DNA from: a virus
Taxonomy: Duplodnaviria; Caudoviricetes
Direction: 5' to 3' (one strand)
Length of the DNA: 64,000 nt
IMG/VR virus record: IMGVR_UViG_3300023048_000002
Span: 96,001 to 160,000 of that record
Shown here: positions 4,108 to 35,755 of the stretch, piece after piece
How the letters are laid out: each line of letters starts with the position of its first letter
How positions within the stretch are numbered: position 1 is the first letter of the stretch
Program-made: the position numbers and the translations under genes
The notes under the pieces: model-generated
What the model was told of the DNA's origin: nothing
What the model saw: only the letters and a program-made list of their open reading frames with translations
Databases searched by the model: none

Positions 4108-5517
4108 TTAAACGAAGTCTAGGTTTACTACGTTGATCTTACCGTAGTAGTCAGCGCTGTTACCCAAGGATGTACGAGTGTCGGTTAGGACAGTCTTAGC
4201 ATAACGGGTCATCAAGCTTACTACTGGCTGCATTGTAACAGGGTTGATGATCGTACCTGTTGACATCAATGGGATGTATGGGCAGTAGAAGTAACCTGCG
4301 TCAGTTTCACCATTGCCACCCTTGTAACCGACAAGAATCTTGTCGCTACCGGCTGGTGCGGATGTACCCGGCTGAGCCTGATTCCATAGGTAGCTATAGA
4401 CCTTGATTGTACCGTTCAATGTACCTGCCAACATTGTGTTGGTTGGTGACTTGAATGAACCTTCAACTGCTGGTGCGAATACTGACTTTGCAGCGCTCTG
4501 TAGAGCAGAAACGATCATTGGAGAAACAACAATGAAGTTACCTGCGCCACGACGTGTCTTACGTGCAATTTCATTTGCTACAGCGTTAATGGTTGGACCT
4601 AGGTTTGCTAGACGATCACCAATGAATGCTGGTGCATATGTGGTACCGGAAGTTGCAGCCAAGTCAAACACGCGAACTGTACCAGCTAGTGCTAGCAAGT
4701 CGTTGATGATTTCAGCATCGATTTCCTGAACAATTTCTGCTGAAAGACCCTTGGTGATTTCAGTTTCAATGTCAAGACCGTGCTGGCTGTTCAAGTCCTG
4801 CATAGCTTCGATGGTCCATGAAGCCTGTAGCTTACGTGAAGCAGCTTCAACAGCCTGTGATACGACTTCTAGAGTCATCTTACGACCGCCAGTGCCTTCT
4901 GCGAATGATGAGTTACCACCACGTAGAGAACCACCAACTGGATTACCGTAAAGAGTTGTACCGGTTTCATAAGTTGTTACGTTTGGATCAGAAGCCCAAC
5001 CTTCACCAGTTGCAGGGGAACCAGTGATACCAGCAGGTGCGGATGTACCGTCCTGACCAGCCCAACCGAAACCGCTTGCGCCCGGAGCCTGTGCTACACC
5101 AGTGTTACCTGAGTAGAACTGACGGATTGGCTTAGCATTACCAAAAGCTTCGTCACCAGAAACGATGTCATAACCACCGAACTGTGAACGGGTTGGATCA
5201 TGCTGCATGCTTTCTTCGTACTTATAACGTAGGGTGAAAATCTGTGATACTGGACCTGACATTGGCTGAACACCAACGATTTCGGTAGCAATTGTACCCG
5301 GAATTACACGGCGGATAAGTGGTAGAAGAGTCTTACGGAAGTTCGCAATATCACCAGCGGCAATTGAACCACCTGATGCAGTTTCGCGAAGCATGTGAGT
5401 CTTCTGGTTTTCTAGAACAGCTTCGACAATGCCGACCTTGTTCTTTGGTAGACCTTCAAGCAAAGCTGACTTTGTTTGGGTCCAATTTTCGTTTAACATT
5501 TTTAGATCTTCGGCCAT
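4108..5517 (-). CDS. gp23: Major capsid protein (gp23-like)
   Basis: IRRVIP..IA.EIVGVQPMSGP; RKLQASWTIEA.QDL..QHGLD; FYCPYIPL; MTRY. Confidence 0.97.
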   Translation of the reverse strand: MAEDLKMLNENWTQTKSALLEGLPKNKVGIVEAVLENQKTHMLRETASGGSIAAGDIANFRKTLLPLIRRVIPGTIATEIVGVQPMSGPVSQIFTLRYKYEESMQHDPTRSQFGGYDIVSGDEAFGNAKPIRQFYSGNTGVAQAPGASGFGWAGQDGTSAPAGITGSPATGEGWASDPNVTTYETGTTLYGNPVGGSLRGGNSSFAEGTGGRKMTLEVVSQAVEAASRKLQASWTIEAMQDLNSQHGLDIETEITKGLSAEIVQEIDAEIINDLLALAGTVRVFDLAATSGTTYAPAFIGDRLANLGPTINAVANEIARKTRRGAGNFIVVSPMIVSALQSAAKSVFAPAVEGSFKSPTNTMLAGTLNGTIKVYSYLWNQAQPGTSAPAGSDKILVGYKGGNGETDAGYFYCPYIPLMSTGTIINPVTMQPVVSLMTRYAKTVLTDTRTSLGNSADYYGKINVVNLDFV

Positions 5518-9641: not shown

Positions 9642-10498
9642 CACTTAATCTGCCAATAAGCATGTAGACGTTCAATAATTCTCTGTGATACTTGATCAGG
9701 AAATAATTCATCCTGTGTATTATCATGAGTCACATATGGGTTGTTCTGGTCCCACATCTTGTACGTATTTCTAATCCATTTACCAGTTGTATGGTGAAGT
9801 GTGATTAAATTTTCTTTTTTGACATGGGAAATATCGCTGGTGTCAGCTTTAATCAAGTCCTTAAAGATTTCATCTTCTGACAAAAATTCTGAATCTTTAT
9901 CATTTGAATCTTCGGTGATTACCTTCTCTTCTTCAAAGATAGGATCGCTAGGTATTCTTATTACCTTTCTACCAAACGCAGCAATATCATGCACTGTATG
10001 CGTATGTGGCTTATCAAGGCCACAATGAGGACATGCAAATGTTCCCCCAACTTCTACAATGAAATCCTTACTATATGATCTTTTTTCTTTAAGAGGAACA
10101 TCAGTATAAGGATTGATTGGATAATTTGGAAACTTGTATGCAGGCTCAGGTGTCTTGTCATAAGCAACATACGTAAACAATCGGTCATCCTGTGCAGGCT
10201 TGTTCATTATAATATGATAAGCCATCATAGTATTTGCTATTGCATGAGCTAGGTGATGCTGGCCTGAATCTTCAGCAAATTCTTCACCAGCCTTGAATGC
10301 ATTGATATGACGCTCAAGGGCATCAAGCACACGAGAAATTTCTAGGTTTACCCAATTATTTGCTGAATACTTCTTGGCACCTGAAGTCATTACCTCAGCT
10401 ACAGCACGCAATGAGTCTGGTGGAAGCAAACCATACTGTGGCTTGTCACCATCCATCTTTGTACCACCATTCTTTCCAACTACTTTTACTTCTACCAT
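9638..10498 (-). CDS. dATP/dGTP diphosphohydrolase (DUF5664) fused to CPHC/H-H motif and DUF6794-like domain
   Basis: GAKKYSANNW...ALERH...DSGQHHLAHA; C-terminal HHTTGKWIRNTYKMW...PDQVSQRII. Confidence 0.75.
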   Translation of the reverse strand: MVEVKVVGKNGGTKMDGDKPQYGLLPPDSLRAVAEVMTSGAKKYSANNWVNLEISRVLDALERHINAFKAGEEFAEDSGQHHLAHAIANTMMAYHIIMNKPAQDDRLFTYVAYDKTPEPAYKFPNYPINPYTDVPLKEKRSYSKDFIVEVGGTFACPHCGLDKPHTHTVHDIAAFGRKVIRIPSDPIFEEEKVITEDSNDKDSEFLSEDEIFKDLIKADTSDISHVKKENLITLHHTTGKWIRNTYKMWDQNNPYVTHDNTQDELFPDQVSQRIIERLHAYWQIKC

Positions 10499-10499
10499 A

Positions 10500-11342
10500 T
10501 TAAATTAACCCTTCATCTTTGTGCTTAGTATACAATGTTTCTACGTAATCTGAAACACCTTTAATGACCTTTTCAGGATCACATGCATACCATCCAGCAC
10601 AATTAAATGAATTCAATTCAACAATTCTTACTGAACCATCACCCATCTTGGCAATATCACAAGTATAGACTTCCGTTGGACTTCTATGGCTCTTGACGAC
10701 CTTCTCTGCAAGATTGAATGCCTCTATAGTGTAGAAATGGCGTTCATTGTGATCGCCCATTAGACTGTACTGAGAGCCGTCTATGATCTTATCGCCAGCC
10801 ACAATGAATCTATATTCTTCTTTAATCTGCTTGCTTGAGGATACCATGATCAAGCTATTATCAACGACACCAGACAATTGTCTAAGTGCATTCGATTGAT
10901 ATAATAAATCATCAATTCCATGAATCGGTAAACCAGTGAATAGTTTACTTCCAGAATTTGGACGAATGAATAATTTATTGGTTTGAAATAAATCTTCGTA
11001 CTTACCAAAGTTAGTTTCAAAATCGTAGAAGGTGGTAATGATGAAATCACCGTTTACCCATAGATCATTTGATAATTGTAATTTGGAATGATAGTTGTGG
11101 AACTTCAATGCTTCCTCATCGAGGAATGATCCGAAGTAAGGCTTAAGGTGTTTGCCTAGGTTGATTGTACTATAGGGTATTACACAATCATTGAAGTCAT
11201 ATGGATATTGGATGTCTTCTTTTCTTGAAAAGGGAATGTACTGCATAAGAGTACATTCATATCCCATATCTTCAATAAGACTAACAAGTTCTATTTTACG
11301 AAACTCGTTAGACATACTGTTATCTACAATCCACTTAACCAT
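10500..11342 (-). CDS. ATP-grasp protein, R2K/DUF4343 type
   Basis: FIRP..GSKLFTG, EYRF, YTCDIA, IVELNSFNCAGWY. Confidence 0.8.
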   Translation of the reverse strand: MVKWIVDNSMSNEFRKIELVSLIEDMGYECTLMQYIPFSRKEDIQYPYDFNDCVIPYSTINLGKHLKPYFGSFLDEEALKFHNYHSKLQLSNDLWVNGDFIITTFYDFETNFGKYEDLFQTNKLFIRPNSGSKLFTGLPIHGIDDLLYQSNALRQLSGVVDNSLIMVSSSKQIKEEYRFIVAGDKIIDGSQYSLMGDHNERHFYTIEAFNLAEKVVKSHRSPTEVYTCDIAKMGDGSVRIVELNSFNCAGWYACDPEKVIKGVSDYVETLYTKHKDEGLI

Positions 11343-24154: not shown

Positions 24155-25249
24155 TTACTTCTTTGAGTATGCTGCGATTGTTTCCTGCTCAAGACGGGCA
24201 AGTTCTACCATGGTGATCTTGCGGGTTTCACGGGCTTCCTGTTCGATTTCACGAACCTTCTGTAGTGAACCAACAGTATCTTCATGTAGCTGCTTAATGG
24301 TGTCGAGATTGACTGCCTGACGCTGATTCAAACGTGCCATGGCTTCAACATTCTTAGCATTAGCACTGCTTGCAGACTTAACTGTTTCATTGAATAGGTC
24401 GAATGTCTTGTTCTGTAGTGCAATAGCACCAGTCTGGCTCTGACTGATCAAGTCACCAGCAAAATACTGCTGATACATGGGGATGATCTTGGTTGTTACA
24501 TCATCAAACGTACCAACAAGACTTGATGCCGTGCGCTTCATCTGTGCAAGCTTTGGATCATATTCCATGGAAAGAATCTTGAATGACTCTAGGTCAACAA
24601 TCTTCTTGTCGAGTTTATCAGAAAGATTCTGTAGATCATTTCGCTTATGGGCTTCATCAAGTGAAGCTGCTTCTGTGGGAAGCTGTTCTAGCTCAGCATT
24701 GACCTGTTCAAGAGCATCCTTGGCGATTTCAATATCCTGAAATAGGCTCTTGCAATAGTTATAGTTTCCTTCGATAAGGATATCGACATTACGAGCCTGC
24801 CTTACCTGAAGGTCACGTTCCTTTCCAATCTGTTTAACAAGAACATCAACACGGTCCTTTGCGCTATCAAATCGTGCTACAGCACGGTCCTTGATGCGAA
24901 GAGCCTTGTTTACAATCTTCTGAATCTTTCCAGTTTTATACTTGTCTGCTGACAAATCCTTGGATACATCAATGAGTTCGTTTAGCTTTTCACCCATTGC
25001 TCCACCTTCAGAATTCTTCTGCTGGTCAAGAACCTTGGCTGCAAACGTGGCAAGATTCTTGCCAGATTCATTACCAATACTAGATACGAATTCTTCAGTG
25101 ATAGGACGACCGATCTGCTTGCCCGGTGTAACCTGTGAGGTTGTCGAGACAGAAATAGCAGTGTTATAGAGTGGTACGTATGGATCGGATTTCATCGAAG
25201 GTTCCGTTGTTTCGTTGTTGGAGGGTCTATCCCAAATCTGGTCAGTCAT
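24155..25249 (-). CDS. Toxic anion resistance protein TelA/KlaA family
   Basis: Long helical protein; RFDSAK..VD.L, K..DLE, TKIIP, VN.DT.K pattern. Confidence 0.75.
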   Translation of the reverse strand: MTDQIWDRPSNNETTEPSMKSDPYVPLYNTAISVSTTSQVTPGKQIGRPITEEFVSSIGNESGKNLATFAAKVLDQQKNSEGGAMGEKLNELIDVSKDLSADKYKTGKIQKIVNKALRIKDRAVARFDSAKDRVDVLVKQIGKERDLQVRQARNVDILIEGNYNYCKSLFQDIEIAKDALEQVNAELEQLPTEAASLDEAHKRNDLQNLSDKLDKKIVDLESFKILSMEYDPKLAQMKRTASSLVGTFDDVTTKIIPMYQQYFAGDLISQSQTGAIALQNKTFDLFNETVKSASSANAKNVEAMARLNQRQAVNLDTIKQLHEDTVGSLQKVREIEQEARETRKITMVELARLEQETIAAYSKK

Positions 25250-25375
25250 GATGTGTCATCCTTATTAGGTGGGAGAATTGTAGAGTTTAATTACATAACA
25301 ATCAAGAACCAAATTCAGAATATTCAATTATAATTCAGGAAAAGAAAAAGCCGTAGATTTCTCTACGGCTTTATA

Positions 25376-25450
25376 TGGTTCCCACAGTAGGAATCGGACC
25401 TACGACTATTCATTACCAATGAATTATGTTACCATTATCACTATGCGGGA
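25376..25450 (-). tRNA. tRNA-Thr(GGT)
   Basis: ATTCA-TTGGTAA-TGAAT. Confidence 0.85.
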
Positions 25451-25457
25451 TTAATTT

Positions 25458-25532
25458 TGGCTGGCCTAGATGGATTCGAACCACCATCAAATCTTTCAGA
25501 GAGACTTATCCTAACCGTTGGACGATAGGCCA
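25458..25532 (-). tRNA. tRNA-Gln(CTG)
   Basis: Loop CTCTGAA; U1-A72, G73. Confidence 0.9.
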
Positions 25533-25540
25533 TTATAAAC

Positions 25541-26203
25541 TTATTTATCTGTTTCTTCTTTAACTGCAACTAAAGGATATTTATATGGTGAGACTATACC
25601 ATCAACAAAATGTTTCGTCAAGGCTTCATCAGATAAAATCCAATATTCATTGGCTTCTCTTTGTAGTAATTCTTGTACTGGCATTCCGGTGCGCTTAGAT
25701 GCATTAACATTTAAATCAAAGATTAACATCTTTAACATAGTCAATCTGTTCTCGGCATGCTCTAACTGATCTGAAGAGATAGTTGTTCTTGCCTGATGAA
25801 ACATAATGATGGCATGTGGAAGCATGTAACGTTTAAATCCATACTGGTGAATATATGCTGCCATGCTTGCAGCAGTACCAACCACGACAGTATAGACTGG
25901 CCTCTTTGATGCCTGCATAGCATCGATAATTCTCAAGCCAGACATAACATTACCACCCGGTGAGTCAATAAACAAGATAATAGGCTTGTCTGTACTTACA
26001 TCTTGAAGATCATGAATCTTCTTGATTACCTGATAAGCAGTAAAATCATTTACTTCACCATAAAGTGTTACAGTATTCTGGTCATTCAATTCATCCTTAG
26101 ATGATGGTGACGCTGAACAGCTAACTGTAGTAGTTAGTACAAACCCTAGAACAACGAACAAGGACAAACTTTTAAACCATTGCATACTGTTTTTACTCCC
26201 CAT
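25541..26203 (-). CDS. ClpP-family protease with N-terminal signal/lipoprotein peptide
   Basis: IDSPGG, AASMA, MFHQ; hydrophobic leader ending TVSC (alternative start 26185). Confidence 0.85.
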   Translation of the reverse strand: MGSKNSMQWFKSLSLFVVLGFVLTTTVSCSASPSSKDELNDQNTVTLYGEVNDFTAYQVIKKIHDLQDVSTDKPIILFIDSPGGNVMSGLRIIDAMQASKRPVYTVVVGTAASMAAYIHQYGFKRYMLPHAIIMFHQARTTISSDQLEHAENRLTMLKMLIFDLNVNASKRTGMPVQELLQREANEYWILSDEALTKHFVDGIVSPYKYPLVAVKEETDK

Positions 26204-26306
26204 GTTTAAAACTATTTATGGAAGAGCCTACACATTATTTTCATGTAAATCAAACCTTTAATTCACATACGTGAAAACAAAAAAAGACGCCTAAGCGTCT
26301 TTGAAA

Positions 26307-26380
26307 TGGCAGCGGATGCAGGATTCGAACCTGCGATGGAGCATTCAAAGTGCCCTGCCGTACCACTTGGCTAATCCGCT
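26307..26380 (-). tRNA. tRNA-Gln(TTG)
   Basis: Loop CTTTGAA. Confidence 0.9.
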
Positions 26381-26390
26381 ATATTTTTAA

Positions 26391-26471
26391 TGCCTCGTGA
26401 TGGGATCGAACCATCGACCTTTTCCTTATCTATCCTAGTAAGGAACACTACTTCCTCTGAGTTAACGAGAC
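26391..26471 (-). ncRNA. tRNA-Val-like RNA with enlarged anticodon arm, no encoded CCA
   Basis: Normal acceptor and T arms; TTCCTTA-CTAGGATAGA-TAAGGAA. Confidence 0.65.
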
Positions 26472-26477
26472 ATATTT

Positions 26478-26551
26478 TGGTAGTTCCTAACAGAATTGAA
26501 CTGTTGTCATTGCCATGTAAAAGCAAGGTTTTTCCATTAAACTAAGGAACC
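26478..26551 (-). tRNA. tRNA-Val(TAC)
   Basis: Loop TTTACAT. Confidence 0.85.
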
Positions 26552-26557
26552 ATAATC

Positions 26558-26632
26558 TGGTACATCGTGAGGGATTCGAACCCCCGACAATTTGCGAGTC
26601 ATGCAAACACTCTACCGCTGAGCTAACGATGC
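26558..26632 (-). tRNA. tRNA-Val(GAC)
   Basis: TTTGC-ATGACTC-GCAAA. Confidence 0.85.
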
Positions 26633-26640
26633 ATAATCTT

Positions 26641-26862
26641 CTATTTATTGTCAGTGGGGGAAATTCCCATAGACTTTATTAATCGTCTAGCCCATTTAAT
26701 TGGTGATGTTACACTATTTTGACGATTTAATTTTTCTTGAGATTCTTGAGATTCTTGAACCATCAAAGCAAGACCTAATAGTTCAGCACGCCTTGGATGA
26801 AGTTTCTCACCCTTAATGTTGTCTATTACTTCTTCTATAGTAAGAAGTGAGTTCGTTTTCAT
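26641..26862 (-). CDS. Hypothetical protein
   Basis: Coupled ORF. Confidence 0.5.
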   Translation of the reverse strand: MKTNSLLTIEEVIDNIKGEKLHPRRAELLGLALMVQESQESQEKLNRQNSVTSPIKWARRLIKSMGISPTDNK

Positions 26863-27113
26863 AGTAATTGGTTCTTAGCTGTGTTGTAAGTTAGTTCTTG
26901 AACAACTAATCCACCATCTTCATCATCATGGGCTAGAACCTTAATACCAAATTCTTCAAACCCTGCTCTTACACCATTTGTGATTTGTTTTTCAATTCCA
27001 TCAAAATCATGGAAGTTACCAAATGGAGTATACTCTTTAACAGACTTGTGTACAAACTTTTCCTTGCCGCACCAAAGTTTCTTAATCTTATTTTTATCTT
27101 TAGTCTTTAGCAT
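26859..27113 (-). CDS. Hypothetical protein (weak capsid-like segment)
   Basis: HDFDGIEKQITNGV vs gp23 HGLDIETEITKGL. Confidence 0.5.
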   Translation of the reverse strand: MLKTKDKNKIKKLWCGKEKFVHKSVKEYTPFGNFHDFDGIEKQITNGVRAGFEEFGIKVLAHDDEDGGLVVQELTYNTAKNQLL

Positions 27114-27279
27114 AATTTTCTTCCATGGTCTTGAGTTCTTCTTTCAAAGTTTCCCAATACCTTTTACTCTGACTGTACCAACGGCTAGTACCATTTTCTC
27201 TCAGAATTCTTTCATGGTTATCTATCTGATCTTTCTTTTTGGCAATCAATAATGCCAATTCTTCTTTGTCATTTATCAT
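27100..27279 (-). CDS. 59-aa hypothetical protein
   Basis: MINDKEELALLIAKK...; downstream of TTGACA promoter. Confidence 0.5.
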   Translation of the reverse strand: MINDKEELALLIAKKKDQIDNHERILRENGTSRWYSQSKRYWETLKEELKTMEENYAKD

Positions 27280-27319
27280 GCCAATAAATTAACATCTTAT
27301 TTTATATCTGTCAATAGGT

Positions 27320-28258
27320 TTATTTTGGTGCTGGCTCATCTTCATCGCGTGATCTAAAGTAATCTTTCAGTTCATCTCGGAGACTGATATATCTATCTGA
27401 ACCATCATCAACAAGATAATTTAATCCCTGCCAATCTTTTCTAAGGTCAGTATAAGGATTGTACTGGTTATCTACCAATATCTTCCATCTTGTTCCGTAT
27501 GAGCGGTTGCTCTTCTTTCCATGATAGTTATGAATAAGAAGACCATGAACATATCCAATATTTCTACGAAGCTTCTTGGCTTTCTCACCCCATTCAACGA
27601 GAGCATTAATATATTCAGGAGAGCAAGGATAACTAACAGAACGACGAATGTCATCCATAAATCCACATGCCATCTGAAAATCACCTGATCCAACAATTGA
27701 GAAGTCGATCAATCCATCAATCACTTCCATAGCATGGCGAGTTGCTGCCCATGCATAACCACAATGACCTGAATGCTTGTTGTAGTCGTTAAGGATAACA
27801 CCGGTCTTATGATACTGGTAAACCATTCCCTTCATAGGAATAGAACCATTAGATGTAATGCGGTTAAAGTTATCATCAATATCAATTGTCTCGCTGAACA
27901 ACTGCACGACTTGGTAATGATGAAGTTGATGAATTGTTTCCTTCACCCAATCTGGACGAGCGAATAATACATCAGCATCAATCCATGCAACATATTCCCA
28001 ATCTTCAGGAAGATGCTGTAAGCCAATGTTAATGAGATTTTCTTTGTTCCAAAGTTCATTCTTTGTTCTTACCTGAACATGATGTGGATTATCTTTATGT
28101 GTAACCTCATAAGGCCTGTCAGCAAATGCTGCTTCTACGGTAATGAGTGTTGCACCAGCAGCATGAATTCTTTCAGCGAATTCACGATAAAGTTTGTATC
28201 TGCTACGGTATCTAAGGGGATTTGAAACAACAGTTATTACGTATAGTGTATTTTTCAT
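27320..28258 (-). CDS. GT-A fold glycosyltransferase-like protein
   Basis: KENLINIG, WIDADV (DxD), GSGD, H.YHG. Confidence 0.7.
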   Translation of the reverse strand: MKNTLYVITVVSNPLRYRSRYKLYREFAERIHAAGATLITVEAAFADRPYEVTHKDNPHHVQVRTKNELWNKENLINIGLQHLPEDWEYVAWIDADVLFARPDWVKETIHQLHHYQVVQLFSETIDIDDNFNRITSNGSIPMKGMVYQYHKTGVILNDYNKHSGHCGYAWAATRHAMEVIDGLIDFSIVGSGDFQMACGFMDDIRRSVSYPCSPEYINALVEWGEKAKKLRRNIGYVHGLLIHNYHGKKSNRSYGTRWKILVDNQYNPYTDLRKDWQGLNYLVDDGSDRYISLRDELKDYFRSRDEDEPAPK

Positions 28259-28451
28259 TTTATAATCAGAAGGCTATTAATATTTTACGAAATTCCTTTA
28301 TGGCACCCAAAAAATACGTAAGAAATAGCGTATTTTCGTGAGATTCTACTCCACCAAACAGAAAAGCCAGACAAAAGTCTGGCCGATTATGTACTTAATT
28401 ATTTATGTATAGTGTCAATTTTCTGACTGTAGATTTTTGAGAAATTTCGTA

Positions 28452-28733
28452 TTATTGCCTGTTAAACATGATGACTTCTTTGCCGCCATATTCCTTTCTG
28501 ATCCTAGTTATTCCAAGATCATCAAAGCTACATATCCAGTCTGAATCTTTGGATGGTGTACTACCAATCTGATGCTGATGAAACCTATACTCACCATTGG
28601 TCAATTTAGATTCAACATAATCCCTATCCTTTGGTTCCTTATAGAGGCCACCACTTCTAGCCATGTCAAGAAGATAGTCAAAGAATTTTTGACGTAGTTC
28701 ATAATTTTCAGTGATTATATTCTTGAGTCTCAT
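28452..28733 (-). CDS. Small late protein, capsid-targeting-like N-terminus
   Basis: MRLKNIITE; TAAATA upstream. Confidence 0.55.
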   Translation of the reverse strand: MRLKNIITENYELRQKFFDYLLDMARSGGLYKEPKDRDYVESKLTNGEYRFHQHQIGSTPSKDSDWICSFDDLGITRIRKEYGGKEVIMFNRQ

Positions 28734-28749
28734 ATGAATCCATTTTAGA

Positions 28750-29256
28750 TTATTTATTTAATAGATTGCTAATCTCATCAAACCTATCATCAACACCAAG
28801 CCTCTTTAGCCAATTATTAAAATATTCATTAAGCTCATCTGATCGAGGATGTGTTCCATCATGATAGATTAAGAAATCTTTATAATTTTGAATCTTATCT
28901 GCAATCAACATGTTATTGACTTCATCCATAGGACTCAAGGCAATCTCTTCAATACTTTCTATCTTTCTATGACTAAGATATTGATTTGCAATGTTTCGAT
29001 ATTCCATGGTTAACATAGCGACATATGGGTCAACCTTATTAATGAATCCATAGTTCTTTGAGAAGTCTTCGTCAGCCTGAAATAATGGATGGAGGCAGAA
29101 TGCTCTCTTTGCATCTGATCCCGCATGAATCATCTCTAAAACAGAAATGCCTTCATCAATATGATTCATTAAAGCTACACCACTACGTTTAGCAGTACGA
29201 TCACCATAGAACTGTTTAATCCATTGGTACTCATTTGTATACTTAGTATATTCCAT
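28750..29256 (-). CDS. Hypothetical protein (possibly HD-like)
   Basis: NHIDEG, LHP, IADK.QN. Confidence 0.55.
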   Translation of the reverse strand: MEYTKYTNEYQWIKQFYGDRTAKRSGVALMNHIDEGISVLEMIHAGSDAKRAFCLHPLFQADEDFSKNYGFINKVDPYVAMLTMEYRNIANQYLSHRKIESIEEIALSPMDEVNNMLIADKIQNYKDFLIYHDGTHPRSDELNEYFNNWLKRLGVDDRFDEISNLLNK

Positions 29257-29734
29257 TTAAAAATTCCGTAGGGTCAATAAGTGATTCTGGCATGGGATCG
29301 TTATGATACCACCATACTGTCTTAGTTGTGCCAGCTTTATGTATTTCAAAATGTAACATACACGTAGGTGTAACACCTTTATCCTTTTTCAGGACTTGCT
29401 TAATGTTTCCTATATGATCACCAACCTTAACTGGATGACCAACAGTTACGCCATCAAGTATGTCTATTTCACCGTAAACGAGGACACCAGACGATCCCTC
29501 TACAAGGAGTGCCCAAGTATCGTTCCACCATGGGGAATCCGCGTGTGAGCCTGTGAAGGCTTCTATGGCTACAACAATTCCATCTTCGATAGCCATAACT
29601 AGGTCACCATCATTACAATAAATGTCGATACCAGTGTGTGTATCAAATCTGCGAATGGAGCCGAATGCACCGGGATCACCTACAGTAGGGATTGGGTGTG
29701 TGTTAGTTACTGGTTTCATGATTATCGTATTCAA
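29243..29734 (-). CDS. M23 family peptidase
   Basis: HTGID; LHFEI. Confidence 0.8.
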   Translation of the reverse strand: MNTIIMKPVTNTHPIPTVGDPGAFGSIRRFDTHTGIDIYCNDGDLVMAIEDGIVVAIEAFTGSHADSPWWNDTWALLVEGSSGVLVYGEIDILDGVTVGHPVKVGDHIGNIKQVLKKDKGVTPTCMLHFEIHKAGTTKTVWWYHNDPMPESLIDPTEFLNGIY

Positions 29735-30041: not shown

Positions 30042-30097
30042 CTTTAAAATTCTCTTAAATGAAAAAAACTCTTAGGATATCCTAAGAGTTTTAGTGT

Positions 30098-30172
30098 TGG
30101 GGACCACGGAGAGGATCGAACTCTCTTATTCTGATTCACAGTCAGATACATTACCATTATGATACGTGGAAC
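30098..30172 (-). tRNA. tRNA-His(GTG)
   Basis: Loop CTGTGAA; G-1:C73. Confidence 0.9.
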
Positions 30173-30180
30173 ATATAACT

Positions 30181-30272
30181 TGGTGGTTCCTGTAGGATTC
30201 GGACCTACATCGTTCGGTTATCTGCCGATCATGTCTTATAAGGACACCGCACTACCATTGTGCTAAGGAACC
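30181..30272 (-). tRNA. tRNA-Ile(TAT) with variable arm carrying a GAT anticodon-like loop
   Basis: GTGTC-CTTATAA-GACAT; V-arm TCGG-CAGATAA-CCGA. Confidence 0.85.
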
Positions 30273-30277
30273 GTAAT

Positions 30278-30354
30278 TGGGAGTCGGTAGTAGGTAACGA
30301 ACCTACATCTGCAACTACTACCGCTGCATGTTCTACAATTGAACTACACCTATC
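30278..30354 (-). ncRNA. Degenerate tRNA-like RNA
   Basis: D arm, T arm and CCA present; mispaired acceptor; TGCAGC-GGTAGTA-GTTGCA arm. Confidence 0.55.
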
Positions 30355-30361
30355 ATAAAAA

Positions 30362-30438
30362 TGGCTCTTCGGGTGAGATTCGAACTCACGATCCTCTGAT
30401 TAACAGTCAGATGCATTAGGCCGCTATGCTACCGAAGA
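30362..30438 (-). tRNA. tRNA-Asn(GTT)
   Basis: Loop CTGTTAA. Confidence 0.92.
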
Positions 30439-30444
30439 ATAAAC

Positions 30445-30520
30445 TGGCGATCCGGGTGGGGCACGATCCCACGACCCCAAAATTAACAATTTTGTGCTCT
30501 ACCAACTGAGCTACCGAATC
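30445..30520 (-). tRNA. tRNA-Asn(GTT), atypical T-loop
   Basis: CAAAA-TTGTTAA-TTTTG. Confidence 0.85.
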
Positions 30521-30527
30521 ATAAAAC

Positions 30528-30619
30528 TGGTGGATGTGACAGGATTTTCGCCTGTACTACTGCGGCAGGTTGCGTCATCGGCTTCCTGACGTAGTGTCTT
30601 AAACTTAACTTACACACCC
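30528..30619 (-). ncRNA. tRNA-like RNA with branched central domain
   Basis: GGGTGTG/CACATCC-ACCA; ACAGG-CGAAAAT-CCTGT; no canonical anticodon loop. Confidence 0.6.
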
Positions 30620-30635
30620 ATAACTATTTGTGGAA

Positions 30636-30768
30636 TGGTTGGAATGGTTGGAATTGAACCAACATCACTGGCCTATAAGATCGAATCGTTGTCATTTGAC
30701 CGCCTAAGCGTCTACCTAAGTAGAAACGATCTTTTGCCTAGCGCTCTACCTATTGAGCTACTATTCCA
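30636..30768 (-). ncRNA. ~133-nt tRNA-like RNA with multi-hairpin insertion replacing anticodon loop
   Basis: D arm GCTC/GAGC; T arm GTTGG-TTCAATT-CCAAC; ACCA end; three mini hairpins. Confidence 0.7.
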
Positions 30769-30780
30769 TAAAACTAAATC

Positions 30781-30855
30781 TGGCAGAGCTAACGGGAATC
30801 GGACCCGTTTCTTATCCGTGACAGGGATAAATAATAACCAATATACCATAGCTCT
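30781..30855 (-). tRNA. tRNA-Asp(GTC)
   Basis: TATCC-CTGTCAC-GGATA. Confidence 0.88.
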
Positions 30856-30864
30856 GTAAAACTT

Positions 30865-31080
30865 TTAATCTTTCTTAATCCAAGCTAACTTAAGATGTGA
30901 AACTGGCTTATAGCCTGCATCAATTAACTCTTGTTCAGTTGGCCCATTCTTTGCAGCTTCAATATAGTCTTGCAAAGGTTTAGGGTCCATAGACTGAACA
31001 CTTAGTAATTCTTCAGCAAACTTTCGTGGAATATCTATACGAAGCTGTTTGATCAATTCTTTACGTTCTTCTTTTGTCAT
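30865..31080 (-). CDS. Small protein resembling gp23 Gol segment
   Basis: LRIDIPRKFAEELLSVQSMDP vs IRRVIPGTIATEIVGVQPMSGP. Confidence 0.65.
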   Translation of the reverse strand: MTKEERKELIKQLRIDIPRKFAEELLSVQSMDPKPLQDYIEAAKNGPTEQELIDAGYKPVSHLKLAWIKKD

Positions 31081-31094
31081 ATTTTTCTCTAAAT

Positions 31095-31179
31095 TGGTGG
31101 GACGCGCAGGAGTCGAACCTGCCTAGAACTTTCGTTCGCTGATTAAGAGTCAGATGCACAACCGCTATGCCAGCGTCCC
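31095..31179 (-). tRNA. tRNA-Lys(CTT) with long variable arm
   Basis: Loop CTCTTAA; V-arm GAAC-GAAA-GTTC. Confidence 0.85.
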
Positions 31180-31184
31180 AAATT

Positions 31185-31259
31185 TGGCGGAACATACGGG
31201 GATCGAACCCGTCTCAGCGCATAGACAGTGCGCCAGCCTCACCAGATGCTTCATGCTCC
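31185..31259 (-). tRNA. tRNA-Asp(GTC)
   Basis: GCGCA-CTGTCTA-TGCGC. Confidence 0.88.
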
Positions 31260-31260
31260 A

Positions 31261-31452
31261 TTAAAAATTTTTCTTCTTAAGTTGATCTAACTTTCGCTGA
31301 CCAACATTACTTAATGAATTAAGAATTTCTTTATCAATTTCATGTAAAACAGCATCTACGATATGTCGAGTGCCTTTCTTTAATTGTTCTTCGGTGAACA
31401 TTGGATACTTTTTTGCCAATTGATCTATTTCTTCAAATGTTATTTCAAACAT
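31261..31452 (-). CDS. Small protein resembling a gp23 helix
   Basis: AVLHEIDKEILNSL vs EIVQEIDAEIINDL. Confidence 0.65.
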   Translation of the reverse strand: MFEITFEEIDQLAKKYPMFTEEQLKKGTRHIVDAVLHEIDKEILNSLSNVGQRKLDQLKKKNF

Positions 31453-31468
31453 TTTTTATCCTTTAATG

Positions 31469-31545
31469 TGGTGGTTCCTATAGGTTTCGCACCTATGACC
31501 TCACGGTTATCAGCCATGCGCTCTAACTATCTGAGCTAAGGAACC
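31469..31545 (-). tRNA. tRNA-Ile(GAT)
   Basis: CATGG-CTGATAA-CCGTG. Confidence 0.9.
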
Positions 31546-31554
31546 ATTTAAAAC

Positions 31555-31640
31555 TGGTGTAAGCGGTTGGATTCGAACCAACGTTTCCGCTAGGAGGCAG
31601 ATTTACAGTCTGCTGGCATAAACCACTCGCCCACGCTTAC
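31555..31640 (-). tRNA. tRNA-Tyr(GTA)
   Basis: GCAGA-CTGTAAA-TCTGC; V-arm. Confidence 0.92.
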
Positions 31641-31648
31641 ATAATTAT

Positions 31649-31873
31649 TTAATCTAAATCACAGTCGCTAATTTTATTATCTTTCATTAGATTCTTCAAA
31701 GCTTCAATCATCGGTTTATCGATATCTGCCTGAGTTACACCAATCTTGGCGAACTCTATCATGATTTCTTCTTTTAAGATTCTAGCTAATTCATCTTCTA
31801 CATCAATTCCTAATTCAGTTAAACGTTGAATATCTTCATCTGAAATTTTCTTATCTGACATAGTACTTTCCAT
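31649..31873 (-). CDS. Small protein resembling a gp23 helix
   Basis: LGIDVEDELARILKEEIMIE vs HGLDIETEITKGLSAEIVQE; own TTGACA-17-TATCAT promoter. Confidence 0.65.
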   Translation of the reverse strand: MESTMSDKKISDEDIQRLTELGIDVEDELARILKEEIMIEFAKIGVTQADIDKPMIEALKNLMKDNKISDCDLD

Positions 31874-31923
31874 TTTTTATCATGATATCGAGCTATAAGC
31901 TGGTTGTCAATGATAATTTGAAT

Positions 31924-31999
31924 TGGTGAAGTCGATTGGAATCGAACCAACGACGCGAACCTTTTCAGGGTTCCGCTCTACCAACTGAGCTACGACTTC
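31924..31999 (-). tRNA. tRNA-Phe(GAA)
   Basis: GAACC-CTGAAAA-GGTTC. Confidence 0.92.
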
Positions 32000-32148
32000 A
32001 TATTCTTCCAGTGTATCTTACAATCATTACGATTAACAAGTACTGGGATTTTCATATCTGGATTATCTTTCAACTCTTGAACAAGACGTTCGCGCTTTTT
32101 TCGCTGCAATTTATCCCATTCTTCTTTCGACAAGAATTTAATATCCAT
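31990..32148 (-). CDS. 52-aa hypothetical protein ending inside tRNA-Phe
   Basis: MDIKFLSKEEWDK...; GAGG RBS; TTGACA-16-TAAGAT promoter. Confidence 0.5.
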   Translation of the reverse strand: MDIKFLSKEEWDKLQRKKRERLVQELKDNPDMKIPVLVNRNDCKIHWKNMKS

Positions 32149-32197
32149 TTCTACCTCTACATCTTACAATGGTTATTTTCATTGTCAAGTTTTAATT

Positions 32198-32288
32198 TGG
32201 TGGGTGAGGACGGATTCGAACCGCCAACGCTTTTTAAAGTCCTGTTTTACAGACAGGTGTGACACTTACCAATAGTCACCACTCCCCC
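32198..32288 (-). tRNA. tRNA-Tyr(GTA) with enlarged D arm
   Basis: CCTGT-CTGTAAA-ACAGG; D stem GTGAC/GTCAC. Confidence 0.85.
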
Positions 32289-32305
32289 ATTACGGTATTT
32301 AAATT

Positions 32306-32380
32306 TGGTGGGTCTGGTGAGAATTGAACTCACTACGGTCGGATTAAAAGTCCGGTGCCTATCCATTTAGCTTCAAACCC
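32306..32380 (-). tRNA. tRNA-Lys(TTT)
   Basis: Loop CTTTTAA. Confidence 0.88.
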
Positions 32381-32598: not shown

Positions 32599-32647
32599 AT
32601 CTTAACATGATATTCTATCTTGTCAAGTCCTGTTAAATCTATTTATA
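32599..32647 (-). promoter_or_regulatory. Sigma70 (extended -10) and late promoters for leader/tRNA array
   Basis: TTGACA-16-TAAGAT with TG; TATAAATA at 32647-32640. Confidence 0.75.
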
Positions 32648-33148: not shown

Positions 33149-35755
33149 TTATGCTGGCTTAAATGCTGCCATTAACACTGCTGTATCAACTGTTCCACTT
33201 GCTGTCCACGATCCACTATAAGAGCCAATTGTTGAAGCTCTCGTATATGATGTTGCACCAACAACATAACCAAGGCTTGTTAATTCATTGACTTTAGTGT
33301 AGCCAGTGCTTGGGGTACATGTAATGGTTGCTGCGTAAGAGTTTACACCAATGAAGCTGAATACTAGTCCACCAGCTACTGCTGTTGCTACTGCTGTTCC
33401 TGTGAATGGGGAAGTGCTGGTAGCTACTGTGCTGAAACTATCTAAAGCTATACCATTTCCATTTCCACCTGTAATAACTTCAGTCATCATCACTGATGGG
33501 TAGTCACTATCATAGGTAGCTGTAATTATATGGTTAGCACCACCTGTTCCCTTTGCACAATAGAATAAGTGAACAAATCTTGTTTGTCCAGTATTTGTTG
33601 ATGACAACTGATATCCACTTACCACCGGTGTATATGTGTTAGAAAATGTGTCTGTTATCACTGGAACATAACTTGATGCTGAAGTTACAAAAACAATGAA
33701 TCCACTACCGGATACTTGTGTAGTTACTGGTGCTGTTGATCCTTTTGAATAGTCTGTATATGAACCCTGTGATGCTGATCCAATATTAAACAACATTGCT
33801 CCAACTGATGGGGTTGGGGTTGGAGATAATGAGATTGATGGTGTTATTGATGGTGTGACTGTATGTGATGCGGTTGGTGTTGGGGTTTTGGTTGTTGTCT
33901 TTGTTAATGTAATTGTTGGGGTAATTGAATGTGTTGGGGTTACTGAAATTGTTGGTGAAGGTGTTGGTGATACTCCACCTGCTGATGTTATTGATGGTGT
34001 CAATGAGAGGGTAGGTGTTACCGTTACTGAAGAAGTAACTGTAATTGAAGGCGTCAATGTTGGTGTAACAGTTACCGGCGGTGTAGATGTTACTGAAGGT
34101 GTTATGGTAATTGACGCCGTAACTGTTGGTGTTATGGATAATGAAATTGTTTGAGTTACGGATGGTGTCTGTGTTACGGATGGTGTGATAGTTGCACTAG
34201 GTGTAGATGTGTTTGTTGATGTTATAGATGGTGTAATAGTTGGCTCAGGAGTTTGAGTCAATGAAGGTGTGTTAGAGACTGATGGTGTCAATGTTGCAGT
34301 TTGCGTAGGTGTGACAGTTGATCCCGGTGTGTTTGTCATACTAGGAGTAATTGAAAGAGTCTGCGTCACCGTAGGTGTAGCTGTTTGTGTTGGTGTTTCA
34401 GTAGGCAATGGTGTCATGCTTAAAGATTGTGTTACTGAAGGTGTTTGTGTGTTTGATGGTGTATTAGTAACTGATGGTGTTACTGTTATAGTAGGTGTCA
34501 AGCTTAAAGATACTGTAGGTGAAACTGTTACAGAAGTCGTTACTGTAGGTGTTGGTGTTCCACTCACTCCCGGTGTATTGGTCACTGATGGTGTAAGTGT
34601 TGGTGAAACTGTTATCGATGGTGTGGCTGTTACCGTTGGAGATAGTGTGACGGATGGAGTTACACTCAATGTTGATGTAACAGTTGGTGTGGTTGTGTGT
34701 GTAGGCGTTAATGTAACAGATGGTGTTAATGTAATAGATGGTGTTAATGAAATTGTAGCTGTCATCGTAGGTGTAGCTGTTGGTGTTCCTGTTACAGCAG
34801 GTGTTAACGTCTGCGTTGCTGTAGGTGTCGTTGTTTGTGTTGAAGTCAACGTAACTGATGGTGAGTTGGTTGGTGTCAAGGTAACACTTGGCGTAGCCGT
34901 TTTTGATGGTGTTGGCGTTGGTGTAGTGGTTCTTGTTTGTGTAGGAGTTAAGAATGGAACCTGAGTTCCTGTTGGTGTTAATGAGATGTTGTCATGAGAC
35001 AAATCCATACCATTAATAATGTAATAACTACCTGATGGTGGTGAGAGTTTATAGTCTGGTCCAGAATATAATGTAAAGGTTATTGACAGTGATCTGGTTG
35101 AGCCTGTATTAAAAGAGAATTCTACTCTTCCACTATCACTGTAATCACCACCAACAATACCAGTGGAATCAGCTTTAATAGAAAATAGACCTTCGTCAGA
35201 ATCACCAAAAATATCAATGGTCAAATAACGTGCTGTACTTTGATTGAAATTGAAGGCGAGGTGGTAGGAAATATTTGGAATAACGTCTACTTCAGATGAG
35301 AAAGAAACAACATCTGAACTGTTACCAGCCTGCGATAATAATTTAATACTAGATGATCCTAGAATATCAACTCTACCATTGTAGGAATTCCACTCAACAG
35401 TATCCGTTGAAAGTAGATTTAATCTTTCATAATAGCTCAATGAAACAGTCACAGATGGGGTGACTGTTGGATATGGTGTTCGTGTTACTGGTGGACTTGG
35501 TGTTTGTGTTAGCGTTGGTGTAGGTGTGATCAAGAACTGTCTTTTAATATCAGCATAACTTTTTAATGCAAACAATTGTGATTGAGAGAACTCATCAATT
35601 GTGTTTGTATCTGACATCATAAATTTGTAATGATATTCACCATCAACAACACCAAGTACTTCGACACAGACACCATTACGGTAGTTCAAAGAACTATCCA
35701 ACATCCATGCTACATCTTTCACCCTATAAGGGTAGCCGTGAATGTTTACGTTCAT
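33149..35755 (-). CDS. Large Thr/Pro/Ser-repeat (mucin-like) protein, probable virion appendage
   Basis: ~390 aa of TPS/TPT repeats between beta-rich domains; TATAAATA promoter. Confidence 0.75.
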   Translation of the reverse strand: MNVNIHGYPYRVKDVAWMLDSSLNYRNGVCVEVLGVVDGEYHYKFMMSDTNTIDEFSQSQLFALKSYADIKRQFLITPTPTLTQTPSPPVTRTPYPTVTPSVTVSLSYYERLNLLSTDTVEWNSYNGRVDILGSSSIKLLSQAGNSSDVVSFSSEVDVIPNISYHLAFNFNQSTARYLTIDIFGDSDEGLFSIKADSTGIVGGDYSDSGRVEFSFNTGSTRSLSITFTLYSGPDYKLSPPSGSYYIINGMDLSHDNISLTPTGTQVPFLTPTQTRTTTPTPTPSKTATPSVTLTPTNSPSVTLTSTQTTTPTATQTLTPAVTGTPTATPTMTATISLTPSITLTPSVTLTPTHTTTPTVTSTLSVTPSVTLSPTVTATPSITVSPTLTPSVTNTPGVSGTPTPTVTTSVTVSPTVSLSLTPTITVTPSVTNTPSNTQTPSVTQSLSMTPLPTETPTQTATPTVTQTLSITPSMTNTPGSTVTPTQTATLTPSVSNTPSLTQTPEPTITPSITSTNTSTPSATITPSVTQTPSVTQTISLSITPTVTASITITPSVTSTPPVTVTPTLTPSITVTSSVTVTPTLSLTPSITSAGGVSPTPSPTISVTPTHSITPTITLTKTTTKTPTPTASHTVTPSITPSISLSPTPTPSVGAMLFNIGSASQGSYTDYSKGSTAPVTTQVSGSGFIVFVTSASSYVPVITDTFSNTYTPVVSGYQLSSTNTGQTRFVHLFYCAKGTGGANHIITATYDSDYPSVMMTEVITGGNGNGIALDSFSTVATSTSPFTGTAVATAVAGGLVFSFIGVNSYAATITCTPSTGYTKVNELTSLGYVVGATSYTRASTIGSYSGSWTASGTVDTAVLMAAFKPA

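Follow-up and report, generated by a model that had tools for sequence, protein, structure and literature searches.

It was found that a small gene lying between tRNA genes of a jumbo phage carries, in its first ~31 residues, what profile comparisons strongly indicate to be a real copy of the N-arm/Gol segment of the phage's own type of major capsid protein (MCP), gp23. Two other small genes beside it match a different part of the MCP, the spine helix, over 17-23 residues each. I regard these two matches as short but beyond chance, with moderate confidence. The three genes are called mini-genes 1, 2 and 3 here. The window, that is, the whole stretch of 64,000 nucleotides analysed, comes from a jumbo phage whose capsid is of the T4 type; it contains 28 tRNA genes in total. 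All the ORFs described in an earlier note on this DNA are present as described there, on the same (minus) strand as the tRNAs. The mini-genes nearly occupy the whole inter-tRNA spaces, and the gaps between ORF and tRNA are 1-50 nt according to the ORF list and ARAGORN. Identity between the MCP of the window and its counterparts in XacN1, Xoo-sp13, and CM1 is 64-67%. The MCP peptides quoted in the earlier note were located at residues about 59-89 and 236-277 (Table 1).

Table 1. Positions in the window of the mini-genes, the matching MCP segments and the neighbouring elements
Feature	Position	Strand	Basis or remark
Major capsid protein (MCP), gp23 type, 469 aa, source of the copied peptides	4108..5517	-	Pfam Gp23, E 2.8e-98
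MCP residues 236-277, spine-helix block matched by mini-genes 2 and 3	4687..4812	-	alignments
MCP residues 59-89, N-arm/Gol-equivalent segment	5251..5343	-	aligned with mini-gene 1
Terminator-like hairpin with T run, downstream of tRNA-His, end of the tRNA/mini-gene block	30065..30092	-	pattern match only
tRNA block, 12 tRNA genes with the three mini-genes interleaved	30098..32380	-	ARAGORN
Mini-gene 1, 71 aa, conserved-family member; N-terminal gp23 N-arm/Gol-like helix and C-terminal GY-PVS...L-W-K module	30865..31080	-	homologues, PHROG, AF2
Gol/N-arm-like motif of mini-gene 1, residues 3-34	30979..31074	-	hhalign to MCP residues 59-89
Mini-gene 2, 63 aa, orphan, helical	31261..31452	-	purine-rich RBS-like sequence upstream; coding-type GC1>GC2,3
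Spine-helix-like motif of mini-gene 2, residues 33-49, EID-EIL-SL	31306..31356	-	block HMM, BLASTP
Mini-gene 3, 74 aa (or 70 aa from the second ATG at 31861), orphan, helical	31649..31873	-	
Spine-helix-like motif of mini-gene 3, residues 12-41, GIDVE-E...L..EI..E	31751..31840	-	hhalign to MCP 236-266
Sigma-70-like promoter TTGACA-17 nt-TATCAT, 11/12	31882..31910	-	directly upstream of mini-gene 3; consensus match only

Mini-gene 1 and its family

The Gol region of T4, at about residues 93-122 of gp23, is a 29-residue peptide. It binds domains II and III of EF-Tu and activates the e14 Lit protease, whose cleavage of EF-Tu depends on the peptide. The earlier note had proposed that the mini-genes copy gp23 segments and that the first copied segment is this Gol region. 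For mini-gene 1, both proposals were borne out by profile comparison and by reciprocal searches. In hhalign, the mini-gene 1 family profile aligned with the MCP profile at Prob 91.5% and P 8.8e-7, residues 3-34 corresponding to MCP residues 59-89. Against PDB sequences, the sole non-repeat matches of the family profile were residues 97-119 of T4 gp23 (6uzc, 5vf3, 8gmo, 8t9r). In six-frame searches, the same profile matched the MCP N-arm only, in 16/16 phage genomes, and Pfam Gp23 found only the MCP, the gp24-like paralogue, and the mini-gene in Xoo-sp13 and Atu_ph04. The homologues scored 15.7-17 bits against Pfam Gp23, at profile positions 3-32 only. Within the genome, the MCP is the best Smith-Waterman target of mini-gene 1 (score 55). 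None of the three mini-proteins of the window matched Pfam Gp23 at E<=1; membership of PF07068 is defined by a curated cut-off of 24.4 bits over the full HK97-type domain, and the mini-proteins lie below it.

Homologues of mini-gene 1 were found in Xoo-sp13, DLP_6, Atu_ph04, Mendera/Marzo/Yut2, and one metagenome contig. In tblastn, E was 6e-7 to 2e-6 with 87-96% of the length aligned, and 5e-4 for Atu_ph04. The family alignment has ten invariant columns, and the similarity is full-length, including the C-terminal module. The family matches two uncharacterised PHROG clusters, phrog_27117 (unknown function) in 6/6 members and phrog_21284 ("hydrolase") in 4/6, although the mini-gene 1 of the window itself reaches E 0.039 and 0.023 only. 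Nothing here supports the hydrolase label, and the PHROG annotations carry no link to gp23. Compared with the P0003 gene, synonymous differences have reached saturation (pS 0.75), and pN amounts to 0.15-0.27. Mini-gene 1 thus belongs to a small conserved phage family under purifying selection. All carriers have gp23-type capsids. No relative was found in a scan of IMG/VR. No family member was detected by tblastn in the closest relatives, XacN1, CM1, and RAS14, and mini-gene 1 is therefore dispensable. The AF2 model (pLDDT 76) consists of a helix at residues 3-28, two short helices, and a hairpin, with no significant match among PDB folds.

The residues that are kept and those that are changed form a regular pattern. 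Among 81 MCPs, the columns R, R, P, G, V, Q, P, and M of the N-arm/Gol segment are invariant. The mini-gene 1 family matches this gp23 motif, RR..P..IA.E.VGVQPM, and its members keep the core R-[RK]-x-x-P-x-x-[IL]-A-x-E-[LI]-V-x-V-Q-P, but two features are always substituted, the invariant Gly that precedes VQP and the T-G-P turn that follows it. Column-by-column comparison showed that the differences from gp23 at the invariant columns are systematic. The family motif does not co-vary with the MCP of each carrier. A further difference from the T4 Gol peptide is that mini-gene 1 encodes a free-standing 71-aa protein with a conserved C-terminal module of its own.

Since three capsid-like pieces lie within 1 kb, they might be the decaying, functionless remnants of a duplicated capsid gene that was split by tRNA insertions. 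However, the pieces do not follow the order of their counterparts in the MCP, and a six-frame HMM search in and around the array found no further capsid-like fragment. All three ORFs are intact and begin with a start codon, their GC pattern is of the coding type, and a purine-rich RBS-like sequence is present at two of them. Moreover, distant phages have conserved mini-gene 1 as a gene on its own, and purifying selection acts on it. For mini-gene 1, decay is largely refuted, and as an account of the whole array it is highly improbable.

Mini-genes 2 and 3 and the spine helix

Plain BLASTP and shuffled Smith-Waterman scores looked significant for two of the ORFs. However, an all-against-all control in the genome gave 15-26 equally good small-against-large pairs (26 of 13,350 pairs at a Smith-Waterman score of at least 52), and the pairwise scores of mini-genes 2 and 3 fall inside this background. 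Plain pairwise statistics were therefore not relied on, and the case for these two genes is built on profiles.

In hhalign, mini-gene 3 aligned with residues 236-266 of the MCP profile at P 3.5e-4 (shuffle p 3e-5). When 495 small phage ORFs were ranked with an 81-sequence gp23 HMM, mini-genes 3 and 2 came second and third (E 0.018 and 0.04), mini-gene 3 directly behind the Xoo-sp13 mini-gene. With an HMM of the spine-helix block, mini-gene 3 had E 1.1e-3 and mini-gene 2 E 3.7e-4, and the next best of the 495 had 0.36. With both HMMs, the two genes outrank the next ORF by 6-8 bits. In ~1 Mb of six-frame phage DNA, they come right after the true MCPs, and when 19 phage genomes were searched with the spine-helix block profile, mini-gene 2 (E 0.011) was the sole non-capsid match. 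The top three of an hhalign ranking of 89 are mini-genes 1, 2, and 3. The block E.AQD...HG.D.E.E...L..EI..EID.EIL..L is matched at positions 18-38 in the case of mini-gene 3 and at 33-49 in the case of mini-gene 2. The mean Smith-Waterman score of mini-gene 3 over the 81 MCPs is the second of 495; this gene scores 41 with its own MCP and up to 57 with distant MCPs (mean 47.9), being closer to the gp23 family consensus than to its own MCP. Mini-gene 3 has two candidate starts. The gene caller of the public collection chose the 70-aa form, and GGAAAG precedes the second ATG.

Is mini-gene 1 the only true copy? Mini-genes 2 and 3 might be unrelated small acidic helical early proteins whose likeness to the acidic, amphipathic spine helix is fortuitous. 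Both are orphans. For mini-gene 2, no homologues were found in phage records, 5.8 billion clustered proteins, and 1.8 billion representatives, and for mini-gene 3, none were found in phage records, 5.8 billion clustered proteins, and the ESM Atlas; in both cases there were self or low-complexity matches only. The small-ORF comparison showed no paralogy among the three mini-genes. BLASTP found nothing between mini-gene 3 and its own MCP. It did align mini-gene 2 with residues 235-274 of the MCP at E 1e-4, but the best Smith-Waterman partner of mini-gene 2 in the genome is a 937-aa protein, and the number of equally scoring pairs in the control speaks for coincidence as well. Searches against the PDB gave designed helical proteins at E 0.006-0.02 and no gp23, and when their own genome was searched in six frames with the full-length gp23 HMM, the two genes scored no better than E 0.17 and 0.38. 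On the other hand, both genes stand out among the 495 small ORFs by the gap given above, and their reversed or shuffled versions score at background. They match the invariant columns of the block (GIDVE-E in mini-gene 3 and EID-EIL-SL in mini-gene 2). Chance would rarely place two such genes next to each other and next to a confirmed copy. On balance, a fortuitous likeness seems unlikely, and I favour the reading that mini-genes 2 and 3 are also related to gp23.

The earlier note had named a weaker fourth case, the ORF at 26859-27113. This part of its claim did not hold; the match is one of chance (Smith-Waterman p 0.2, hhalign P 0.83).

Expression context and possible roles

The mini-genes lie on the same strand as the tRNAs, between a promoter-like and a terminator-like site (Table 1), and the homologues of mini-gene 1 adjoin DNA polymerase, clamp-loader, and RNR genes, which are early/replication neighbourhoods. 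This context suggests early expression of the mini-genes and fits the proposal of the earlier note that they are expressed early with the tRNA array.

In T4, the N-arm/Gol segment is a ligand of EF-Tu and the trigger of the Lit protease, and it contributes to the delivery of gp23 to GroEL. The three mini-proteins may be mimics of gp23 peptides that occupy a host sensor, EF-Tu, or GroEL, a reading to which I give slightly less than an even chance. Each gene would produce a short, mostly helical protein displaying one isolated conserved MCP peptide, and sigma-70-like promoters would drive its transcription together with the tRNA block, ahead of the build-up of capsid protein. The gp23 peptide, presented out of context, might then occupy a partner that reads the same peptide on nascent or unassembled gp23. 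Candidate partners would be a capsid sensor (of the Lit/EF-Tu, Avs7/8, or CapRel type) or a host factor used by gp23 (EF-Tu, GroEL). The loss of the Gly before VQP and of the T-G-P turn in the mini-gene 1 family would suit a protein that binds but does not set off what normally follows. The abundance of EF-Tu is far beyond what a small early protein could titrate, and a simple EF-Tu competitor is therefore unlikely. It is known that the gp23 N-terminus directs fusion proteins to GroEL (PMC3012670) and that scanning mutagenesis found 13 residues of the 20-residue Gol core to be critical (review PMC3014915). Several defence systems read the MCP, one of them jointly with EF-Tu (preprint 10.64898/2026.01.04.697583).

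A more specific form of this idea would be an early cassette of capsid-peptide decoys. Conserved gp23 peptides would be shown before capsid synthesis and would saturate or mis-trigger Lit/EF-Tu, Avs7/8, or CapRel-like sensors; such counter-defence genes would be exchanged horizontally by T4-like and jumbo phages and parked in accessory regions such as tRNA arrays. I consider this version doubtful. As for a decoy fitted to the phage's own capsid, the sequence comparisons argue against it, since the mini-gene 1 motif does not track the carrier's own MCP and mini-gene 3 is closer to the gp23 family consensus than to its own MCP.

The same two observations could favour interference with competing phages, in which the mini-proteins would act as dominant-negative fragments that poison the capsid assembly or folding of co-infecting T4-like phages. 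However, this idea is purely inferential, given the strong conservation of the peptides the phage would put its own capsid at the same risk, and no precedent was found in the literature searched. It is very unlikely.

The mini-proteins might instead be accessory proteins of head assembly. Free copies of the N-arm and the spine helix would bind the scaffold/core, the prohead protease, or the portal, and would modulate assembly or be loaded as internal proteins. In proheads, it is the N-arm and the spine helix of the MCP that point towards the scaffolding core, and every carrier of the mini-gene 1 family has a gp23-type capsid. Being flexible, the N-terminal region of gp23 probably touches the scaffold at the prohead stage; in T4, unexpanded heads have residues 66-105 in a disordered state, and these are thought to touch the scaffold, the capsid-length mutations A94V and G97S lie in the segment, and Met98 contacts the portal whisker (PMC9546572). 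However, none of the mini-genes lies in a head-gene cluster, their locations being the tRNA array or replication modules, and a sigma-70-like promoter points to early, not late, expression. No N- or C-terminal tag or leader is common to the three proteins or shared with other ORFs of the 171-kb record; in this they differ from the T4-type internal head proteins, which carry an N-terminal capsid targeting sequence as well as a protease site. In addition, the mini-gene 1 family is sporadic and was not found in the closest relatives. A role in head assembly is thus quite unlikely, and peptide mimicry remains the reading that I prefer.

Comparison with known systems

Capsid proteins are major triggers of bacterial immunity (Lit, CapRel, Avs7/8; one with EF-Tu). 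In the literature searched, there was no description of Gol-like free-standing proteins or capsid-peptide decoys, nor of a phage countermeasure that imitates the capsid peptide itself. A free-standing Gol copy would offer a handle on why this segment is the most conserved stretch of gp23 and on what the binding of EF-Tu and GroEL means for the phage. Even if the decoy idea is wrong, mini-genes that carry a single capsid block would be an undescribed class of phage accessory genes.

The short conserved blocks that the mini-genes share with gp23/gp24 (PF07068, HK97 fold; 5VF3, 6UZC, 1YUE) are the N-arm and, from the spine helix, its start and middle. However, each covers 17-31 residues of a roughly 450-residue fold, and no capsid subunit is possible. 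In the proposed logic, they would resemble Ocr-type DNA mimics, signal sponges, and decoy tRNAs, each mini-protein being a small, early, non-essential imitator of a molecule read by the host; unlike in those systems, the imitated object would be the phage's own capsid peptide. To my knowledge, the small ORFs in the tRNA regions of T4/T5-like phages have not been reported as copies of capsid peptides. The mini-genes are similar to them in being short genes on the tRNA strand that are probably co-transcribed with the tRNAs and released by tRNA processing.

Mini-genes in the tRNA array

The window is part of a 171-kb phage record, and the reported length of the full contig is 346 kb. Its major capsid protein (MCP), of the gp23 type, shares 64-67% identity with the MCPs of the Xanthomonas/Stenotrophomonas jumbo phages XacN1, Xoo-sp13, CM1, and RAS14. 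ARAGORN detected 28 tRNA genes in the window, all on the minus strand, and three mini-genes nearly fill gaps of one 12-tRNA block. All three have a coding-type GC pattern, and two of them have a purine-rich stretch ahead of the ATG. In the 260-nt gap immediately downstream of mini-gene 1, ARAGORN called no tRNA. Accessory genes are situated between the tRNA clusters. In an 868-aa protein, the N- and C-terminal globular parts are separated by a very long repeat region of TPT/SVT type, which is rich in Thr, Pro, Ser, and Val and runs to several hundred residues.

Features of the window and related loci
Feature	Coordinates	Strand	Remark
MCP, gp23-type	4108-5517	-	Pfam Gp23, E 2.8e-98
Accessory genes	24155-29734	-	between tRNA clusters
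TelA-like protein	24155-25249	-	accessory gene
ClpP-like protease	25541-26203	-	accessory gene
Family 2 glycosyltransferase	27320-28258	-	accessory gene
M23 peptidase	29243-29734	-	accessory gene
Hairpin + T run	30092-30065	-	after last tRNA of block; consensus match only
12-tRNA block	30098-32380	-	mini-genes in gaps between tRNAs, same strand
Gap in tRNA block	30521-30780		260 nt
Mini-gene 1	30865-31080	-	71 aa
Mini-gene 2	31261-31452	-	63 aa
Mini-gene 3	31649-31873	-	74 aa
Promoter-like TTGACA-17 nt-TATCAT	31910-31882	-	directly upstream of mini-gene 3; consensus match only
Promoter-like, TTGACA-type (TTGACA at 32188)	32161-32188	-	upstream of 52-aa ORF 31990-32148; consensus match only
Promoter-like, TTGACA-type (TTGACA at 32626)	32599-32636	-	head of tRNA block; consensus match only
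868-aa repeat protein	33149-35755	-	
Atu_ph04 (Agrobacterium phage) homologue of mini-gene 1	MF403007.1 ~10416-10613 (L003:2986-3183)	-	absent from public annotation
63-aa ORF, same phage, outside window	G000:C1:57192-57383	-	

The earlier note held that these mini-genes and a fourth ORF (26859-27113) resemble gp23. BLASTP against the MCP gave E 1e-4 for mini-gene 2 and nothing useful for mini-genes 1 and 3 or the fourth ORF. Smith-Waterman comparison with shuffles gave p ~1e-4 for both mini-genes 1 and 2, 0.02 for mini-gene 3, and 0.2 for 26859-27113. An all-against-all control was performed on the 171-kb record (13,350 small-versus-large pairs); 15 pairs scored at least 55 and 26 at least 52, and mini-gene 2 found its top partner in a 937-aa protein instead of the MCP. 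Since so many pairs were equally good, the pairwise scores alone prove nothing. The fourth ORF, which also gave no signal by hhalign, was rejected as a capsid copy. Overall, the observation was largely right, with the other three standing: the resemblance is strong for mini-gene 1 and moderate for mini-genes 2 and 3.

The Gol/N-arm segment in mini-gene 1

I found full-length homologues of mini-gene 1 in Xoo-sp13, DLP_6, Atu_ph04, Mendera, Marzo, Yut2, and one metagenome contig. The Xoo-sp13 homologue adjoins the DNA polymerase gene, that of DLP_6 sits between clamp-loader genes, and that of Atu_ph04 has ribonucleotide reductase genes and a glutaredoxin-like ORF immediately upstream. The consensus of the family alignment, ELI.K.RKSIP..IAEELVSVQPMDP, resembles the gp23 motif more closely than does the copy in the window. 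In a profile-profile comparison with five MCPs (Prob 91.5%, P 8.8e-7, 31 columns), mini-gene 1 residues 3-34 aligned with MCP residues 59-89. In six frames of four carrier phages, Pfam Gp23 matched only the MCP, a gp24-like paralogue, and two mini-genes (Xoo-sp13, E 6.5e-4; Atu_ph04, E 7.3e-4). Conversely, in each of 16 phage genomes or contigs, the family profile found one locus, the MCP N-arm (per-genome E 2e-5 to 5e-3), besides two family members themselves. Against all PDB sequences, its sole non-repeat matches were T4 gp23 chains at precursor residues 97-119. This match falls inside the Gol region, which bears out the earlier identification of the segment with the T4 gp23 Gol peptide. Thus, judged by sequence, mini-gene 1 is a real copy of the gp23 Gol/N-arm segment.

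Mini-gene 1 resembles the Gol peptide at the sequence level, but its score is below the Pfam cut-off and it is outside the capsid protein family. The PHROG clusters to which it belongs are uncharacterised; phrog_27117 was matched by 6/6 family members, phrog_21284 by 4/6, and "major head protein" PHROGs by 2/6. Compared with 81 MCPs, the family retains R, [RK], P, [IL]A, E, [LI]V, and VQP; the invariant Gly ahead of VQP and the T-G-P turn that follows VQP are always substituted. No tracking of each phage's own MCP by the family motif was seen. An AF2 model (pLDDT 76) shows the motif as a single long helix spanning residues 3-28, with two short helices and then a hairpin after it; a search with the model gave no fold match.

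Are the mini-genes gene debris? Between mini-gene 1 and the metagenome homologue, pS is saturated (0.75) while pN is 0.15-0.27, which indicates purifying selection on mini-gene 1. A decayed capsid pseudogene was rejected because the pieces are not collinear with the MCP and no further capsid-like fragments lie in or near the array. Tagged proteins were also rejected, as a search for a common tag in the three mini-genes found none, and the mini-genes are not mutual paralogues at a detectable level.

The C-terminal half of the family, which is conserved (mini-gene 1 residues 37-58, NG-TEEELI-AGY-PVS), resembles the repeated decapeptide of Legionella IcmE/DotG (summed E 1e-9 across 15 weak repeat matches in the PDB sequence search), and one member matches Pfam "Decapeptide" at E 0.12. 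This is treated as a motif-level curiosity. A 63-aa ORF outside the window shares a weak L-D..E.A-NG...GY-P...LK-AW pattern with this half (BLASTP E 0.048) and may be a distant paralogue of the C-terminal module.

Spine-helix-like motifs in mini-genes 2 and 3

No homologue was found for mini-gene 2 in phage records, 5.8 billion clustered proteins, and 1.8 billion representatives, or for mini-gene 3 in phage records, 5.8 billion clustered proteins, and the Atlas. In PDB, both matched designed helical proteins (E 0.006-0.02) and no gp23, and BLASTP of mini-gene 3 against the phage's own MCP gave nothing. The resemblance was initially read as chance on these grounds, and this reading was revised after profile tests. 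By hhalign against the MCP profile, mini-genes 1-3 took the first three places among the record's 89 small ORFs (by rank, P 4e-4, 1.2e-3, 0.011). Shuffled versions scored far lower (p 3e-5, 1.6e-4, 3e-3), and reversed versions were at background. A gp23 HMM of 81 sequences was run unfiltered on a set of 495 small ORFs, of which 89 belong to this phage and 406 to four other phages. The Xoo-sp13 mini-gene came first (18 bits), mini-gene 3 second (8.9 bits, E 0.018), and mini-gene 2 third (7.8 bits, E 0.04); the next-ranked ORF had 5.4 bits.

An HMM specific to the gp23 spine-helix block (MCP residues 236-277), picked after the similarity had been noticed, gave E 3.7e-4 for mini-gene 2 and 1.1e-3 for mini-gene 3 on the same ORFs (next ORF, 0.36). 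On ~0.95 Mb of six-frame phage DNA, they ranked right after true MCPs (E 0.019 and 0.056), and over 19 phage genomes the single non-capsid locus was window 31306-31356. The matches are short: GIDVE-E...L..EI..E at block positions 18-38 in mini-gene 3, and EID-EIL-SL at positions 33-49 in mini-gene 2. With the full-length gp23 HMM in six frames of the phage's own genome, E was only 0.17 and 0.38 for the two. Chance resemblance is nevertheless unlikely, since the non-capsid matches that score best belong to two neighbouring genes, both beside the confirmed copy. Mini-gene 3 is probably a real motif copy, and the balance tilts, slightly less firmly, towards mini-gene 2 being one. The Smith-Waterman score of mini-gene 3 was 41 to its own MCP and up to 57 to other MCPs, and it fits the family consensus better than its own MCP. 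This points to a copy that is old or was acquired horizontally rather than to recent self-duplication.

Possible roles and expression

MCP is sensed by Avs7 (together with EF-Tu), Avs8, and CapRel. The Gol segment binds EF-Tu at domains II and III, a step needed for EF-Tu cleavage by Lit (PMC3014915). Fused to other proteins, the N-terminus of gp23 routes them to GroEL (PMC3012670). Mimicry would be the most economical reading: by imitating gp23 peptides, the mini-proteins may tie up a partner that recognises the same peptides on gp23 not yet assembled. Since EF-Tu is so abundant, its simple titration is unlikely; a low-copy sensor would be a more plausible target, which matches the earlier proposal of non-activating decoys for host capsid sensors. 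The decoy interpretation is a plausible hypothesis. In the literature searched, no paper was found on free-standing Gol-like proteins or capsid-peptide decoys. Rivals to mimicry are interference between phages via the mini-proteins, chance resemblance in the case of mini-genes 2 and 3, gene debris, and a role in assembly; before head expansion, gp23 residues 66-105 are flexible and probably touch the scaffold, and they later become the N-arm (PMC9546572).

The region has 18 promoter-like sites (10.3 expected). The promoter- and terminator-like consensus matches, together with the replication-module setting of family members, suggest early or middle expression of the mini-genes.
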